Virus record (IMG/VR): IMGVR_UViG_2529292829_000014
Reading direction: 5' to 3' (one strand)
DNA from: a virus
Taxonomy: Duplodnaviria > Heunggongvirae > Uroviricota > Caudoviricetes
Length of the DNA stretch: 7,279 nucleotides
Part shown: positions 1-7,279 of the stretch, one piece after another
Position numbering within the stretch: position 1 is the stretch's first letter
Layout of the letters: every line of letters starts with the position of its first letter
Notes under the pieces: generated by a model
The model's database searches: none
What the model was told of the DNA's origin: nothing
The model's input: only the letters and a program-made list of their open reading frames with translations
Position numbers and translations under genes: made by a program

Positions 1-378
1 TTATTTCGAACAATCAGCATCCATCTCCAATCGGAGATCCAACACCATCAGCATGCCCTCCACTACGCCCTCAGCTTTCTGGAGCATCCTGCCAACCCAA
101 CAATCAGATCGCCCATGCTTACGTGCAAGCGCCATAAAAGTCATGCCGCCGACATAATAGTCCACCAATAAATCATGTAAATCGCTGTTGTTTTTTTTCA
201 GGCGAGCCATACATTCACAAATGATCATCGCGTCATCGTCACAGCATTGCGGACGAGATCTTACTTTTGAAGGAATTAATCCCTTAAAACCGGCGGCAAT
301 GGACGACCAGGTCACATCTTCATGATTATTAGCCGCCCATGCCCCCCAACGCTCAAGAACCATCTGAATATCACGCAT
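1..378 (-). CDS. Phage late antitermination protein Q (short Q type, QuuD-like), 125 aa
   Basis: Translation [26 protein letters not shown]...[17 protein letters not shown]... recognised from memory as the short Q antiterminator family. ATG at 376..378 is preceded by GGAG 7 nt upstream on the minus strand; the ORF track's 393 start is an upstream in-frame GTG. TAA stop at 1..3. Lies directly downstream of the ydfU-like gene as in Qin/DLP12-type prophages. Confidence 0.7.
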
Positions 379-395
379 CAACTTACTCCACAAAA

Positions 396-1445
396 TTAGG
401 CCAGCACACCAATTGCCAGCGCGCGATCGATAAATCGAAAAATCAGCTCCAGTTGGGAGCCATACTTCTCTTCAAATGCCACGGTATCCGTATGCAACTC
501 GTCGTGATGCTTTCTGCACAAAGGCAACACAAAGAGATCATGTGCTTTGGTTCCCATTCCGCCCTGCCCGTGACCAATCAGATGATGCGGATCGTCGGCT
601 GGCATACCGCAGCAAGCACACGGCTGTGTCTTAACCCAGCGTGTGTATTTCTCCTTAACCCAACGGTGACGTTTAGGCAGCTTCATGAAAGATTCCGGAG
701 ACTCTGGATCAACGGTGATGCTTACCACCGTCTTTTCCTGTGATGGGTTTTGTTGCTGGTGGGCGTGAGGCAACGGTGCAAGATTTTTTGTGCGCTGTTT
801 CAATATGCTGGTGGCGGTCTGCTCTCCCGGTACGATGTCGCTTTCGCGGTACACCGAGCAGTTTTTTTCCGCTGGTAATCCCAGCGAGCGACGTAATACC
901 GCTTCCGGTAGCGCGTCCGCCACCTGATTGCGGACCGCCCACCAGGATAATTCAGCCAGAGATAATTCACGCTCCTGCGTACCGCTTATTGCGTGACCGA
1001 TGACGTCAATCATCCATGCTGACAGGTTTTGATGAGCAAGTTGCTCGAGTGATTCGGATGTCTGGTCACGCAGCTGGTTGTCGCAGTGCCAGCACAACAC
1101 CATTGCGCCGGTACCATAACGGTGAATAACGGTTTCGCTGTGATGATAATCGCCGAGTGGCCACTGGCAGGATTTAATATGGCGCAACAGCCAGTCAGAC
1201 AATGCACCAGCACCACCAGCAGCACGAATTACCCGTGCGTTACTGAAAAACGGCAGCAATGTTTTGTCTTCCACCAGCGGCTGGCGAACGGCAGGAACGA
1301 CCCCGGACGGCAGATTACGCATGCTTTTCGGTTCCGGCTCCACCAGTACCCGGGTATTGTGGAATACCGGCATGGATTCACGGCCCGGCTTAACGACCAC
1401 CAGCCCGAGTTCCGGTACCAGAACAGGTCGAAGTAATACCCGCAC
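396..1445 (-). CDS. ydfU: DUF968/YdfU-like prophage protein with C-terminal Cys/His (HNH-like) metal-binding cluster, 349 aa
   Basis: 349-aa ORF with GTG start at 1445 preceded by GGAGG (minus-strand mRNA ...GGAGGUAAC GUG). C-terminal motif CACCG...HHLIGHG...CRKHHDELH. Same length and position (just upstream of Q) as YdfU of the Qin prophage; family assignment is from memory. Confidence 0.6.
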
Positions 1446-1661
1446 GTTACCTCCAGATGCGTTGCTGGAATGTACGGGACGGACTCGGTGGGCGTTCGGA
1501 GTAAGGCAATCTGACTGAGATTATCCAGTGACGGTATGTGGCGTGTTCCCCAACCAGGACGGTACGTTCACCGCGATGACATATACCAAAAGCAAAACGT
1601 TTAAAACCGAATCTGGCGCGCGTTGCTGGTTAGCCAGAAACACTGACTGATGAGGCTGACG

Positions 1662-2027
1662 ATGGAATTTAAAGATTTACCGTCTGATGTACAGAAAACA
1701 GCAGCTCATACATTGCATTCTGTGCTGCGAGAAATCGGGAAAGATATTGCAAGCGAGCCAGCAAAAGATCTGGCCCGGAAAATCAAGACCGCTTTCGTTG
1801 AGCTTTATAATGTTGGCACTGACTCTGAAACTGTCGAGACCAAGACCGTAAGTTCACCAATATTCTCACTTGAGCCAGGCGTATTATCAGGTGAAATATG
1901 CACCGAGATTTCCAGCGAACTGCTTCCGGTAATACGAGAAGCAATTTGCCGTCGCGGTTTGGATGGAAGTTACGATCATGACGTCCTGCAAGTTCTCAGG
2001 ACAATGGTGACTTCACTGGGGATTTGA
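1662..2027 (+). CDS. Hypothetical protein, 121 aa, mildly acidic, no recognisable domain
   Basis: ORF with GAGG 6 nt upstream of ATG at 1662 (an in-frame ATG at 1650 lacks an SD). No transmembrane segment or HTH recognised. Its 3' end overlaps the convergent minus-strand gene by 32 bp (1996..2027). Confidence 0.45.
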   Translation: MEFKDLPSDVQKTAAHTLHSVLREIGKDIASEPAKDLARKIKTAFVELYNVGTDSETVETKTVSSPIFSLEPGVLSGEICTEISSELLPVIREAICRRGLDGSYDHDVLQVLRTMVTSLGI

Positions 2028-2196
2028 TCCCTGCGTCCTCTAACCTTTTGATATAGCGGTCCTCCAAGAAGCGGTAAATTTTGTCGAAATCATCTTTCCC
2101 CTCTGGTTTATTCAGAGGATTACAGGACCCGTAAGTAGCGGCATACATTTTAACCGTTTTATCAAAAATATAAGAGACAAATTCTTCTTTAGTCAT
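1996..2196 (-). CDS. Hypothetical small protein, 66 aa (MTKEEFVSYIFDKTVKMYAATYGSCNPLNKPEG...), moron-like
   Basis: ATG at 2194..2196 (minus strand) preceded by a strong SD (mRNA ...AAGGAAAUCUAU AUG). The coding region looks visibly AT-richer than its neighbours by eye (not computed). Opposite orientation to the flanking operon. The 95-aa ORF-track version is an upstream GTG extension that would swallow the SD. Confidence 0.5.
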   Translation of the reverse strand: MTKEEFVSYIFDKTVKMYAATYGSCNPLNKPEGKDDFDKIYRFLEDRYIKRLEDAGIKSPVKSPLS

Positions 2197-2276
2197 ATAG
2201 ATTTCCTTCTTGGTTATTCGGGATAAGAAGGATACCACCTCGCCTGACGTGGTTAAAAGCAGGCACACAACACGAA

Positions 2277-2336
2277 AGCGCACGGCGAAGTTCGTCTCAC
2301 TGTACGGTGTCGTTAAATTTAATTCGACCGTGCGCT
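2277..2336 (+). repeat. Perfect 9-bp inverted repeat (AGCGCACGG / CCGTGCGCT) enclosing 42 nt, part of a hairpin-dense region upstream of dicF
   Basis: Arms at 2277..2285 and 2328..2336 are exact reverse complements. Further hairpins follow: CCGCG/CGCGG (2352..2367), CGGGG/CCCCG (2380..2398), GTTGTCA/TGACAAC (2412..2444). Confidence 0.35.
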
Positions 2337-2471
2337 TCCGGTTGTGGCAACCCGCGAAATGGCGCGGCGGTAAGTATGGCGGGGTTATTCCTTCCCCGTT
2401 GAGGACACCGAGTTGTCAGGTTGACCATACGCTTAAGTGACAACCCCGCTGCAACGCCCTCTGTTATCAAT

Positions 2472-2529
2472 TTTCTGGTGACGTTTGGCGGTATCAGTTT
2501 TACTCCGTGACTGCTCTGCCGCCGTTTTT
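2472..2529 (+). ncRNA. dicF: DicF small regulatory RNA (prophage-encoded antisense inhibitor of ftsZ translation)
   Basis: Sequence TTTCTGGTGACGTTTGGCGGTATCAGTTTTACTCCGTGACTGCTCTGCCGCC followed by a T5 tract matches my memory of the 53-nt E. coli DicF RNA almost base for base. It sits immediately upstream of a 62-aa dicB-like ORF, as in the Qin dicB operon. Confidence 0.8.
2487..2529 (+). terminator. Rho-independent terminator forming the DicF 3' end
   Basis: Stem GGCGGTA (2487..2493) pairs with 2517..2523 (ending CCGCC), with an inner CAGT/ACTG helix, followed by G plus TTTTT (2525..2529). No A-tract precedes it, so it is oriented for the plus strand. Confidence 0.55.
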
Positions 2530-2622
2530 AAAGTGAATTTTGTGATGCGGTGAATGCGGCTAAGCGCACGCGGAACAGTTAAAACCAAAAACAGTGTTAT
2601 GGGTGGATTCTCTGTATCCGGC

Positions 2623-2643
2623 GTTAATTGTTAACTGGTTAAC
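2623..2643 (+). promoter_or_regulatory. Three spaced copies of the palindromic hexamer GTTAA(C/T); candidate operator or promoter element upstream of dicB
   Basis: GTTAAT at 2623..2628, GTTAAC at 2630..2635 and 2638..2643, about 55-75 bp upstream of the dicB-like start. A CCTGG-N5-CCAGG inverted repeat follows at 2649..2663. No convincing sigma70 -35/-10 pair could be assigned. Confidence 0.3.
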
Positions 2644-2698
2644 GTCACCTGGAGGCACCAGGCACTGCATCACAAAATTCATTGTTGAGGACGCGATA

Positions 2699-2887
2699 AT
2701 GAAAACGTTATTACCAAACGTTAATACGTCTGAAGGTTGTTTTGAAATTGGTGTCACTATCAGTAACCCTGTATTTACTGAAGATGCCATTAACAAGAGA
2801 AAACAAGAACGGGAGCTATTAAATAAAATATGCATTGTTTCAATGCTGGCTCGTTTACGTCTGATGCCAAAAGGATGTGCACAATGA
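2699..2887 (+). CDS. dicB: DicB-like cell-division inhibitor, 62 aa
   Basis: ATG at 2699 preceded by GAGGA 7 nt upstream. 62 aa, the length of Qin DicB, and located directly downstream of dicF. The ORF-track 97-aa version starts at an upstream GTG without an SD. Confidence 0.7.
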   Translation: MKTLLPNVNTSEGCFEIGVTISNPVFTEDAINKRKQERELLNKICIVSMLARLRLMPKGCAQ

Positions 2888-3075
2888 ATTCAGCATTTGC
2901 GCTTGTTCTGACAGTTTTTCTTGTTTCCGGAGAGCCAGTTGATATTGCAGTCAGTGTTCACAAGACAATGCAGGAGTGTATGACTGCAGCAACCGAACAG
3001 AAAATTCCCGGTAACTGTTACCCGGTCGATAAAGTTATTCACCAGGATAATATCGAAATCCCGGCAGGTCTTTAA
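2884..3075 (+). CDS. ydfD: YdfD-like small membrane protein (lysis protein on overexpression), 63 aa
   Basis: ATGA start/stop overlap with dicB at 2884..2887 (translational coupling). N-terminal hydrophobic segment AFALVLTVFLVSG. 63 aa, the length and position of Qin YdfD. The ORF-track 81-aa version is an in-frame upstream extension. Confidence 0.65.
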   Translation: MNSAFALVLTVFLVSGEPVDIAVSVHKTMQECMTAATEQKIPGNCYPVDKVIHQDNIEIPAGL

Positions 3076-3168
3076 AACAGTTCCGTAATAAATATCCGGT
3101 TTCATTCTTATATGCCAGCAATGGCAGGGATTTGTTCATCCTTAAATCTGTCATGAGGTTAAAACAAA

Positions 3169-5640
3169 ATGAGTAAAGTCTTTATTTGCGCCGCTATTCC
3201 TGACGAACTGGCAACAAGGGAAGAAGGCGCTGTGGCTGTAGCCACAGCCATTGAAGCTGGCGACGAACGCCGTGCTCGAGCAAAATTTCACTGGCAGTTC
3301 CTGGAACATTATCCGGCTGCTCAGGACTGCGCTTATAAATTTATTGTCTGCGAGGATAAACCTGGCATACCCCGCCCTGCCCTCGATTCATGGGATGCTG
3401 AATATATGCAGGAAAACCGCTGGGATGAGGAGTCTGCTTCTTTTGTCCCGGTTGAGACTAAATCCGATCCGATGAACGTCACTTTTGACAAGCTGGCCCC
3501 TGAAGTACAGAACGCTGTCATGGTTAAGTTCGACACATGTGAAAACATCACCGTTGATATGGTTATTAGCGCACAGGAATTGTTGCAGGAAGACATGGCA
3601 ACATTCGACGGACATATCGTTGAAGCGTTGATGAAAATGCCAGAAGTTAACGCCATGTTTCCGGAGCTTAAGTTGCACGCCATTGGGTGGGTTAAGCATA
3701 AATGTATTCCTGGTGCTAAATGGCCCGAAATTCAGGCAGAGATGCGCATCTGGAAAAAACGTCGCGAAGGTGAACGCAAGGAAACCGGAAAATACACGTC
3801 TGTTGTTGATCTCGCCCGCACCAGAGCCAATCAACAGTACACTGAAAATTCAACAGGAAAAATCAGCCCGGTCATTGCTGCCATTCATCGCGAATACAAG
3901 CAGACATGGAAAACACTGGATGACGAACTGGCCTACGCTCTCTGGCCTGGTGATGTGGTTGCCGGAAACATTGACGGCAGCATCCATCGCTGGGCAAAAA
4001 AAGAAGTTATCGACAACGACCGCGAAGACTGGAAGCGTATCTCGGCATCAATGCGCAAACAGCCTGATGCCCTTCGCTACGCCCGCCAAACTATTTTTGG
4101 CCTTGTCCGTGAGCGTCCGATCGACATTCACAAAGATCCCGTAGCACTGAACAAATATATCTGCGAATACCTGACGACAAAGGGCGTGTTTGAGAATGAA
4201 GAAACAGACCTGGGCACTGTTGATGTTCTCCAGTCATCAGAAACACAAACTGATGCAGTGGAAACTGAGGTATCTGATATCCCAAAAAATGAAACCGCGC
4301 CGGAAGCTGAACCATCTGTAGAGCGTGAGGGGCCGTTCTATTTCCTCTTCGCAGATAAGGACGGAGAAAAATACGGTCGCGCAAACAAACTTTCTGGTCT
4401 GGATAAGGCACTGGCTGCTGGCGCCACTGAAATCACAAAAGAAGAATATTTTGCCCGAAAAAATGGCACATACACGGGCTTACCGCAAAATGTAGATACC
4501 GCTGAAGATTCAGAACAACCAGAACCGATAAAAGTTACCGCTGACGAAGTAAACAAAATTATGCAGGCAGCCAATATCAGCCAGCCTGACGCCGATAAGT
4601 TGCTTGCTGCATCACGTGGTGAATTTGTTGAAGGGATTAGTGACCCGAATGATCCGAAATGGGTTAAGGGGATCCAGACCCGCGATTCTGTGAACCAGAA
4701 CCAGCATGAATCGGAACGGAACTACCAAAAAGCGGAACAAAACAGCCCAAATGCGTTACAAAACGAGCCAGAAACGAAACAGCCTGAACCAGTGGCGCAA
4801 CAGGAAGTGGAAAAAGTCTGCACCGCCTGCGGTCAGACCGGCGGCGGCAACTGCCCTGATTGTGGCGCGGTGATGGGCGACGCAACATACCAGGAAACAT
4901 TCGATGAAGAGTATCAGGTTGAAGTTCAGGAAGATGATCCGGAGGAAATGGAAGGCGCTGAACATCCACACAAGGAGAACACTGGCGGCAATCAGCATCA
5001 CAATAGCGATAATGAAACTGGCGAGACGGCAGATCACTCAATTAAGGTGAACGGTCATCACGAAATCACATCCACCAGCAGGACGTGTGACCATCTAATG
5101 ATCGACCTTGAAACCATGGGAAAAAATCCTGATGCCCCGATCATCTCAATAGGTGCAATATTTTTCGATCCGCAAACCGGAGATATGGGACCGGAATTTA
5201 GTAAGACTATCGATCTGGAAACTGCTGGCGGAGTCATTGATCGGGACACCATTAAATGGTGGCTTAAGCAATCACGCGAAGCGCAATCTGCCATTATGAC
5301 CGATGAAATCCCGTTAGATGATGCACTGTTACAATTGCGGGAATTTATCGACGAAAACTCCGGTGAATTTTTTGTTCAGGTTTGGGGAAATGGAGCCAAC
5401 TTCGACAACACGATTTTGCGCCGTTCATACGAACGGCAGGGGATCCCCTGCCCGTGGCGTTACTACAACGATCGCGATGTACGCACAATCGTTGAGCTGG
5501 GGAAAGCCATAGACTTCGATGCCAGAACGGCTATTCCATTCGAAGGTGAGCGCCATAATGCACTTGATGACGCCCGTTACCAGGCAAAATACGTTTCAGT
5601 TATCTGGCAAAAACTGATCCCGAGTCAGGCTGATTCTTAA
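3169..5640 (+). CDS. RecE-like (annotated elsewhere as exodeoxyribonuclease VIII-like) multidomain protein, 823 aa, with C-terminal DnaQ-like DEDDh 3'-5' exonuclease domain
   Basis: Long ORF with GAGG upstream of ATG at 3169. C-terminal 180 aa (from 5098) carry Exo I MIDLET, Exo II GNGANFD and Exo III HNALDDARYQAKY motifs. Middle region is acidic and low-complexity with a CxxC-x7-CxxC zinc ribbon (CTACGQTGGGNCPDCG, 4819..4863). Sits in the exo/recE slot upstream of xis-int; it may be the intact counterpart of the IS-truncated ydfE of K-12 Qin (inference). Confidence 0.8.
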   Translation: MSKVFICAAIPDELATREEGAVAVATAIEAGDERRARAKFHWQFLEHYPAAQDCAYKFIVCEDKPGIPRPALDSWDAEYMQENRWDEESASFVPVETKSDPMNVTFDKLAPEVQNAVMVKFDTCENITVDMVISAQELLQEDMATFDGHIVEALMKMPEVNAMFPELKLHAIGWVKHKCIPGAKWPEIQAEMRIWKKRREGERKETGKYTSVVDLARTRANQQYTENSTGKISPVIAAIHREYKQTWKTLDDELAYALWPGDVVAGNIDGSIHRWAKKEVIDNDREDWKRISASMRKQPDALRYARQTIFGLVRERPIDIHKDPVALNKYICEYLTTKGVFENEETDLGTVDVLQSSETQTDAVETEVSDIPKNETAPEAEPSVEREGPFYFLFADKDGEKYGRANKLSGLDKALAAGATEITKEEYFARKNGTYTGLPQNVDTAEDSEQPEPIKVTADEVNKIMQAANISQPDADKLLAASRGEFVEGISDPNDPKWVKGIQTRDSVNQNQHESERNYQKAEQNSPNALQNEPETKQPEPVAQQEVEKVCTACGQTGGGNCPDCGAVMGDATYQETFDEEYQVEVQEDDPEEMEGAEHPHKENTGGNQHHNSDNETGETADHSIKVNGHHEITSTSRTCDHLMIDLETMGKNPDAPIISIGAIFFDPQTGDMGPEFSKTIDLETAGGVIDRDTIKWWLKQSREAQSAIMTDEIPLDDALLQLREFIDENSGEFFVQVWGNGANFDNTILRRSYERQGIPCPWRYYNDRDVRTIVELGKAIDFDARTAIPFEGERHNALDDARYQAKYVSVIWQKLIPSQADS

Positions 5641-5651
5641 TGTTCAACTGT

Positions 5652-5683
5652 CGCCGGTTGTGACTGGTATTCTGCAACCGGCG
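5652..5683 (+). promoter_or_regulatory. Perfect 9-bp stem (CGCCGGTTG / CAACCGGCG) with 14-nt loop between the recE-like stop and xis; no U-tract
   Basis: Arms at 5652..5660 and 5675..5683 are exact reverse complements. Begins 12 nt after the recE-like stop. No T-run on either strand, so it is not a canonical intrinsic terminator. Confidence 0.4.
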
Positions 5684-5712
5684 CTCGTCTGATGTAAGAG
5701 ATAAAGAAATCG

Positions 5713-5964
5713 ATGAGCGAAGTAATCATGATTGTCTCTCCCGGCAAATGGGTATCCGAAGAGCAGTTAATTGCGCTGAAAGGAATAAAAAAAGGTACGT
5801 TAAAAAAGGCCCGGGAAAAATCGTTTATGGAAGGAAGGGAATATAAGCATGTCGCTCATGACGGTATGCCATGGGATAACAGTCCATGCTTTTACAACCT
5901 GGAAGAAATTGATCGCTGGATTGAGCGCCAGGCATCAGCGAGACCAAGACGTCATCTTACTTGA
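5713..5964 (+). CDS. Excisionase-like protein (lambdoid prophage Xis-like, DUF1233 type), 83 aa
   Basis: Small ORF immediately upstream of the integrase. The sequence ...KWVSEEQLIALKGIKKGTLKKAREKSFMEGREYKHVAHDGMPW... resembles the excisionase-like proteins found upstream of int in E. coli lambdoid prophages (from memory). Start could instead be the ATG at 5728. Confidence 0.6.
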   Translation: MSEVIMIVSPGKWVSEEQLIALKGIKKGTLKKAREKSFMEGREYKHVAHDGMPWDNSPCFYNLEEIDRWIERQASARPRRHLT

Positions 5965-5983
5965 CTAAAAGCCACACTAACTA

Positions 5984-7279
5984 ATGAGAGAAGTTGAAAT
6001 GAAATATCCGACAGGCGTGGAAAACCATGGAGGGAAATTACGTATCTGGTTTGTTTATAAAGGCGTAAGAGTCAGGGAAAATCTGGGGGTTCCTGACACA
6101 GCAAAAAACAGGCGCGTTGCAGGTGAACTACGCTCCTCTGTTTGTTACGCAATAAAAACTGGTGTTTTCGACTATGCAAAACAGTTTCCCTCCTCACGCA
6201 ATCTGGAAAAATTTGGTGAGGCCCGACAAGATTTAACCATAAAAGAACTGGCTGAAAAATTTCTGGCACTGAAAGAAAATGAAGTCGCCAAAACATCACT
6301 CAACACATACCGTGCCGTCATCAAAAATATCCTGAGCATAATCGGTGAAAAAAATCTTGCCTCATCGATTAATAAAGAAAAATTACTGGAGGTTCGTAAA
6401 GAGCTACTGACTGGATACCAGATCCCCAAAAGTAACTATATTGTTACACAACCAGGGAGATCGGCTGTAACTGTAAATAATTACATGACAAATCTTAACG
6501 CCGTGTTCCAGTTTGGTGTTGATAACGGTTACCTGGCAGATAATCCGTTTAAGGGGATCTCGCCATTAAAGGAATCAAGAACCATTCCGGATCCTCTTTC
6601 GCGGGAGGAATTTATCCGTCTTATCGATGCGTGCAGAAATCAGCAAGCAAAAAATTTATGGTGTGTTTCTGTTTATACTGGCGTTCGCCCTGGTGAGCTG
6701 TGTGCACTTGGATGGGAGGACATAGATCTGAAAAATGGAACAATGATGATCAGGAGAAATTTAGCAAAAGACCGTTTCACGGTACCAAAAACACAGGCGG
6801 GAACCAATCGGGTCATTCATCTTATTAAGCCAGCAATCGACGCTCTCCGGAGTCAGATGACATTAACGAGACTGAGTAAAGAGCATATCATTGATGTTCA
6901 CCTCAGAGAGTATGGCAGAACAGAAAAACAAAAATGCACCTTTGTTTTTCAACCTGAAGTGTCAGCGAGAGTAAAAAATTATGGTGACCATTTTACCGTT
7001 GACTCAATAAGGCAGATGTGGGACGCAGCGATAAAACGTGCCGGACTCCGCCATCGAAAATCATATCAGTCGAGACATACTTATGCCTGCTGGTCGCTGA
7101 CAGCTGGTGCTAACCCGGCATTTATAGCAAACCAGATGGGCCATGCAGATGCGCAAATGGTATTTCAGGTATACGGAAAATGGATGTCTGAAAACAATAA
7201 TGCACAGGTAGCTTTGTTAAATACACAGTTAAACGAGTTTGCCCCAACCATGCCCCATAACGAAGCAATAAAAAATTAA
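5984..7279 (+). CDS. Tyrosine recombinase / phage integrase with N-terminal arm-binding domain (IntR/DUF3596-like), complete, 431 aa
   Basis: N-terminal YPTGVENHGGKLRIWFVYKGVRVRENLG arm-binding motif. Catalytic signature: Arg in TGVRPGEL (6686..6688), RHTYA box (7073..7078), Tyr nucleophile in GHADAQMVFQVYGKW (7172..7174). TAA stop is at the window end. The true start may be the ATG at 5999 (MKYPTG...). Confidence 0.9.
   Translation: MREVEMKYPTGVENHGGKLRIWFVYKGVRVRENLGVPDTAKNRRVAGELRSSVCYAIKTGVFDYAKQFPSSRNLEKFGEARQDLTIKELAEKFLALKENEVAKTSLNTYRAVIKNILSIIGEKNLASSINKEKLLEVRKELLTGYQIPKSNYIVTQPGRSAVTVNNYMTNLNAVFQFGVDNGYLADNPFKGISPLKESRTIPDPLSREEFIRLIDACRNQQAKNLWCVSVYTGVRPGELCALGWEDIDLKNGTMMIRRNLAKDRFTVPKTQAGTNRVIHLIKPAIDALRSQMTLTRLSKEHIIDVHLREYGRTEKQKCTFVFQPEVSARVKNYGDHFTVDSIRQMWDAAIKRAGLRHRKSYQSRHTYACWSLTAGANPAFIANQMGHADAQMVFQVYGKWMSENNNAQVALLNTQLNEFAPTMPHNEAIKN

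Follow-up and report, generated by a model that had tools for sequence, protein, structure and literature searches.

The DNA analyzed here, a stretch of 7,279 nucleotides referred to as the window, was 100% identical to a segment of Escherichia coli O68:H12 strain 97.3 (NZ_CP061758.1, 2349647–2356925, reverse strand), as it was to sequence in five further complete genomes. Placed by this match, the window forms the right-hand portion of a cryptic lambdoid prophage that strain 97.3 has at the Qin site, beside rspB. The left edge of the window coincides with the stop-codon end of the antiterminator Q gene and its right edge with the integrase stop codon; the prophage extends leftward past the window through lysis genes, cspI, gnsB and an IS3 insertion, with rspB on the right. 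The small RNA gene dicF lies directly upstream of dicB, a placement in the early-left operon of the lambdoid prophage. The genes and other features, in window coordinates, are as follows.

1–378, minus strand: antiterminator Q gene
396–1445, minus strand: ydfU
1447–1536, minus strand: 3′ fragment of gene X, which encodes a 92-aa hypothetical protein
1528–1650, plus strand: ydfA remnant (DUF1391), without its own ribosome-binding site and first 12 codons
1533–1536: deletion junction with GGTA microhomology, joining the gene X 3′ fragment (minus strand) to ydfA codon 13
1662–2027, plus strand: gene for a 121-aa hypothetical protein, occupying the place of K-12 ydfB and ydfC, with no K-12 homology in its span
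2268–2344, plus strand: long hairpin upstream of dicF, candidate RNase III site for the 190-nt precursor (−30.3 kcal/mol, z = −3.1)
2306–2700, plus strand: precursor and processing context with the dicF–dicB spacer, nearly identical to K-12
2472–2524, plus strand: dicF, 53-nt mature DicF sRNA as annotated in K-12 (Rfam RF00039; comparison with K-12 b1574)
2472–2486, plus strand: single-stranded 5′ part of DicF (nt 1–15), the xylR-pairing region in K-12, unpaired in the predicted fold and identical to K-12
2487–2529, plus strand: Rho-independent terminator, a two-tier hairpin with a U-tract at 2525–2529 (predicted fold and Rfam consensus structure)
2496–2523, plus strand: 3′ part of DicF (nt 25–52), complementary in the predicted pair list to ftsZ mRNA −1 to −28, including the Shine–Dalgarno sequence
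2524, plus strand: sole mismatch to K-12 dicF (K-12 has C, the window G), lying 1 nt 3′ of the terminator stem
2699–2887, plus strand: dicB, cell division inhibitor, 62 aa, 100% identical to K-12 DicB (RefSeq annotation)
2884–3075, plus strand: ydfD, lysis protein, 63 aa, two substitutions relative to K-12 (RefSeq annotation)
3169–5640, plus strand: gene for an 823-aa exonuclease
5713–5964: excisionase gene (xis)
5999–7279, plus strand: integrase gene (int)

The first-pass annotation had flagged 2472–2529, TTTCTGGTGACGTTTGGCGGTATCAGTTTTACTCCGTGACTGCTCTGCCGCCGTTTTT, as a DicF sRNA with its terminator, and the identification was borne out by both an Rfam/Infernal search and a comparison with K-12 dicF, each of which gave a significant match. 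In the search with cmscan against Rfam 15, RF00039 (DicF) was the sole family above its gathering score in the whole window, matching 2473–2524 on the plus strand over the complete model (positions 1–52 of 52); it scored 72.5 bits, its gathering score being 48 (E = 5.5e-15). Window positions 2472–2524 share 52 of 53 bases with dicF of K-12 MG1655 (b1574, 53 nt, annotated as ncRNA). The 5′ end that had been proposed, 2472, is exactly that of K-12 dicF, and the proposed 3′ end, 2529, takes in the five-U tract at 2525–2529. The exact 73-nt allele of the window is found in 890 E. coli records. That the stretch might instead be a chance resemblance or a decayed pseudo-sRNA has a negligible probability: nothing was found in its favor, and it is refuted by the full-length RF00039 match together with the identity to K-12, with the recurrence of the same allele also counting against it. 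On these matches, 2472–2524 is a genuine dicF gene and belongs to RF00039 and the dicBF locus family as an ordinary representative.

Both terminator elements recognized at first reading, the hairpin and the U-tract, are present in the predicted fold, in which 2487–2493 pairs with 2517–2523 and 2495–2499 with 2509–2513, followed by UUUUU. The predicted folding energy is −16.6 kcal/mol (z = −2.1); the K-12 allele folds alike at −15.9 kcal/mol, and the G/C change at 2524 leaves the predicted fold unaltered. The DicF terminator escaped a simple pattern scan for terminators, since the pattern demands an uninterrupted stem with a loop of 3–8 bases and the DicF stem is interrupted; the miss is a limit of the pattern, the hairpin being present in both the covariance model and the fold.

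Two matches below the gathering score were also seen. The dicF–dicB spacer and first dicB codons (2522–2731, plus strand) matched STnc100 (RF02076) over its full length but sub-threshold, scoring 34.5 bits where the gathering score is 47 (window-wide E = 9e-5); the best-fitting part is the hairpin CACCUGGAGGCACCAGGCAC at 2646–2665. STnc100 has been linked to the PasD sRNAs of Stx phages (2026 preprint), and the dicB leader may be distantly related to this prophage sRNA family. A match to the snoRNA sR55 at 996–1057 (E = 0.015, 23.9 versus 35 bits) was dismissed as chance, since this is an archaeal C/D-box family and the match lies inside antisense ydfU sequence.

DicF has no promoter of its own in K-12 and is excised from the polycistronic RNA initiated at dicBp, which lies upstream of ydfA; the 5′ end of a 190-nt species is created by RNase III and that of the 53-nt species by RNase E, the 3′ end being given by the terminator (PMC10448788). 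The window was compared with K-12 over this region by MAFFT alignment, an ungapped comparison being upset by a 3-nt indel. Across 2306–2700 there are only four differences, at 2411, 2524, 2548 and 2562, and none falls within 60 nt of the DicF 5′ end. A 190-nt species with its 3′ end at 2524–2529 would have its 5′ end at 2335–2340, inside the 3′ arm of the upstream hairpin, whose basal stem is also predicted in K-12 and whose apical part has diverged. The predicted RNase III hairpin and the RNase E 5′-end context are thus preserved at the sequence level, and everything needed downstream of transcription is, as far as these predicted sites tell, present in the window.

On transcription of the operon, RNase III would be expected to cut the RNA within the upstream hairpin and RNase E to cut it at the DicF 5′ end, with the transcript running as far as the DicF terminator. 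The 53-nt, Hfq-dependent sRNA so released would cover the ftsZ ribosome-binding site with its 3′ part and so block division, and its 5′ part would repress xylR, with pykA and manX as further targets. These steps are those of the K-12 literature, carried over because of the sequence identity. In K-12, compensatory mutations demonstrated pairing of the DicF 3′ part with the ftsZ ribosome-binding site, the 5′ part forms pairs with xylR mRNA, pykA is another target, and over-expression of DicF causes filamentation and toxicity (PMC5069750); manX is a further target in the K-12 literature.

The pairing with ftsZ mRNA that had been ascribed to DicF involves a pair proven in K-12, of which both partners are conserved here: DicF nt 1–52 are identical to K-12, and the leader of the strain 97.3 ftsZ gene likewise shows no difference over −100 to +30. 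Compared directly, as had been suggested at first reading, DicF 25–52 and the host ftsZ ribosome-binding site form the predicted pairs with −1 to −28. Among 5425 genomes, 5389 have this ftsZ leader at 99% identity or higher. RNA duplex energy was also tried as a test of ftsZ targeting and dropped, as it ignores the structure of DicF itself and does not discriminate: 69 of 1000 shuffled DicF sequences equalled or bettered the energy that DicF gives with the ftsZ leader (full-length duplexfold), and the ftsZ window ranked 4196 among 19578 by hybridization energy (windows from 49 kb of the same genome). For this reason, ftsZ targeting is based on identity to the experimentally validated K-12 pair.

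The part of the operon upstream of dicF is different. Alignment to the intact prophage of strain PI12 (NZ_CP074005.1) placed window positions 1–1536 at 201–1736 of the PI12 locus (L007) and positions 1533–7279 at 5759–11505, so that 4,026 bp are missing from the window about 940 bp upstream of dicF. Comparisons with K-12 and strain C give the same deletion conclusion. The missing segment comprises the 5′ part of gene X, rem, hokD, several small genes, dicC, dicA and the dicA–ydfA intergenic region, as well as the ydfA ribosome-binding site and first 12 codons. It is the lost intergenic region that bears the −35 and −10 elements of dicBp (K-12, TTGACC-17-TAATCT; strain C, TTGCCT-17-TAAATT; PI12, TTGACG-17-TAAATT). 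Stationary phase, high temperature and urea are inducing conditions for dicBp in K-12.

In K-12, DicA represses dicBp 22-fold, Rem acts as an antirepressor, and no further promoters were found by the authors in the dicBF operon (PMC10448788). The elements of a regulated operon, namely dicBp with DicA operators plus dicA/dicC, are all absent from the window, with no second copy in the genome, and a second copy of ydfA, dicF or dicB was likewise not found in the strain 97.3 genome. Read from the sequence, the dicF gene itself is whole in this copy, but its sole known promoter and every known regulator are gone. The impression that DicF looks intact here accordingly stands for the RNA gene and its processing context and does not extend to the operon, from which dicBp, dicA, dicC and rem are deleted. 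The junction is rare (6 of 5426 genomes, namely 97.3, 027_SK3, ABW_S38, KFu015, E2 and I4), and because the flanks are 99.5–99.8% identical to intact relatives, the deletion is recent. It follows from a recent deletion that the intact dicF sequence is no evidence for or against function.

The 40-aa "DUF1391 family protein" of RefSeq (1528–1650) is really the ydfA remnant, and the call is probably an annotation artefact because its GTG start sits in unrelated sequence across the junction. Strains C, H2 and PI12 have an annotated 66-aa gene (WP_000159335.1; 1996–2196, minus strand) that overlaps the end of the 121-aa gene in antisense orientation; its sequence is present but unannotated in strain 97.3. 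A promoter-like minus-strand site, ATGACT-18-TATATT (2196–2167), overlaps the 5′ end of this frame, and transcription from it would run against that of the dicBF operon.

We favor, at a probability of roughly 0.85, the overall reading that the window holds a bona fide dicF in a Qin-site dicBF operon, intact in itself, with its only known promoter deleted, and most likely silent or weakly expressed. As to expression in particular, this dicF is probably silent or expressed only at a low, unregulated (constitutive) level, and this would explain how a toxic, intact dicB persists without its repressor. A consensus scan found no plus-strand sigma-70-like site scoring at least 9/12 in window positions 1–2600. 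A lenient scan of 1–2475 gave 10 weak plus-strand candidates versus 7.1 ± 2.6 in shuffled sequences; since it also misses the true K-12 dicBp, the negative promoter scan argues only weakly for silence.

A lesser, though real, possibility is that dicF is still expressed, from a cryptic promoter in the region of the ydfA remnant and 121-aa gene or by read-through from upstream, and is processed normally by RNase III as well as RNase E to give constitutive DicF free of DicA, DicC and Rem. The best of the weak candidates, TCAAGA-17-TATAAT at 1783, has a perfect −10 and lies in the region of the 121-aa gene without a K-12 counterpart. Such a counterpart is lacking throughout window positions 1537–2255, and the K-12 result of no internal promoter does not strictly cover that region because it is missing from K-12; the intact processing region and terminator are also in keeping with continued expression. 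Against these points, the candidate sites are no commoner than in shuffles and none reaches 9/12, the genes left of the junction are all coded on the opposite strand, and an unrepressed operon would be toxic through DicF and DicB (PMC5069750, PMC10448788), yet dicB is intact and dicA is gone. The DicF hairpin and U-tract might, alternatively, act foremost in cis, terminating or attenuating transcription within the operon before it enters the toxic dicB and ydfD, with the trans-acting sRNA role secondary in this strain. The principal operon transcript of K-12 (1,146 nt) stops at the dicF terminator and a minority reads into dicB/ydfD (PMC10448788), and the terminator is intact here. This is nevertheless unlikely to be the main role, as a cis function does not exclude the sRNA role, which was genetically shown in K-12, and without a promoter there would be little to attenuate. 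The silent or weakly expressed dicF of the main reading is preferred over both.

The junction has a counterpart elsewhere. Strain H2 and 13 other genomes have a different arrangement, in which X′ is joined to QueH′ and, at the far end of the inner segment, YdaT-cro′ is joined to ydfA′. Both outer breakpoints of H2 (4534–4537 and 8491–8493 of its locus, L004) match the window junction at 1533–1536 within 0–3 nt, so that the window is formally H2 minus a 3,954-bp inner segment (QueH′ to cro′) flanked by GTA. The H2 flanks are 3 SNPs from intact PI12 and 25 SNPs, in 5.7 kb, from the window. A random second deletion was rejected as the source of the window type, as it would not strike both old junctions. 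With regard to descent of the window type from the H2 type, the breakpoint sequences and flank SNPs give no event order, and no mechanism was found. The junctions may be shared by common descent with the flanks shuffled by homologous recombination, which is the dull explanation; the interesting one is that there may be a breakpoint hotspot. Because the two junction types share their outer breakpoints (0–3 nt) on backbones 25 SNPs apart, we also put forward, as a long shot, a site-preferring process that removes or swaps the Qin-type immunity-regulatory cassette and repeatedly yields promoterless but intact dicF–dicB toxin modules, the deletion then being non-random.

Sequence containing dicF is widespread, occurring in 4011 of 5426 complete E. 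coli genomes (~74%) and in up to seven places per genome; multiple dicF copies were described earlier in O157:H7 (PMC5069750). The expectation that an ORF-only annotation would miss the gene proved correct, in that no RefSeq feature lies under dicF in strains 97.3, C, H2 or PI12 or in any of 30 sampled genomes. Among the records examined, dicF is named only in the curated K-12 MG1655 record and in one phage record (Tritos). Since RefSeq leaves dicF unannotated, comparisons built on annotated genes pass over a regulator that acts on cell division and sugar metabolism. Conversely, a perfect sRNA match does not imply an active sRNA, and presence is not to be read as expression; predicting DicF/DicB traits in a strain (filamentation, or effects on xylR, pykA and manX) from presence alone would be wrong. 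The biology of DicF at this locus is already known and the understanding of DicF itself is unchanged. What the analysis adds is the annotation gap and a caution about the lost promoter.

Compared with Qin of K-12 (b1574), the window lies at the same site beside rspB and has 52 of the 53 dicF bases, the same fold, the same dicB and ydfD downstream and the same processing region from ~165 nt upstream of dicF. It differs in the G for C at the last base, in the 121-aa gene that replaces ydfB and ydfC, and in lacking dicA, dicC, dicBp, rem, hokD and the ydfA start. The 823-aa exonuclease and integrase genes are intact in the window, whereas K-12 ydfE and intQ are pseudogenes interrupted by IS2; the integrase gene of strain C is frameshifted. 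Intact Qin-type prophages, those of PI12 and strain C, have exactly the same dicF and the nearly identical flanks noted above, and they keep X, rem, hokD, dicC, dicA, dicBp and full ydfA, all or part of each of which falls in the 4,026 bp by which the window is short. Temperate phages also carry dicF–dicB blocks: window positions 2300–2900 match 59 phage records at up to 99.3% identity, including HannyBb, mEp460, Tritos and Stx2-converting phages, and the record of Escherichia phage Tritos carries the annotation 'DicF antisense sRNA, inhibits ftsZ'. Complete phage genomes would be expected to have the dicF–dicB block within a full early-left operon governed by an immunity region, unlike the window, from which the immunity region is gone. 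The PL operon of phage lambda, with kil, is likewise an early-left lambdoid operon that carries inhibitors of FtsZ-dependent host division under the control of the phage repressor. Lambda uses a protein (Kil) only, whereas the dicBF operon uses an sRNA and a protein. In the parallel drawn between the two systems, dicBp corresponds to PL and DicA to CI (PMC10448788).
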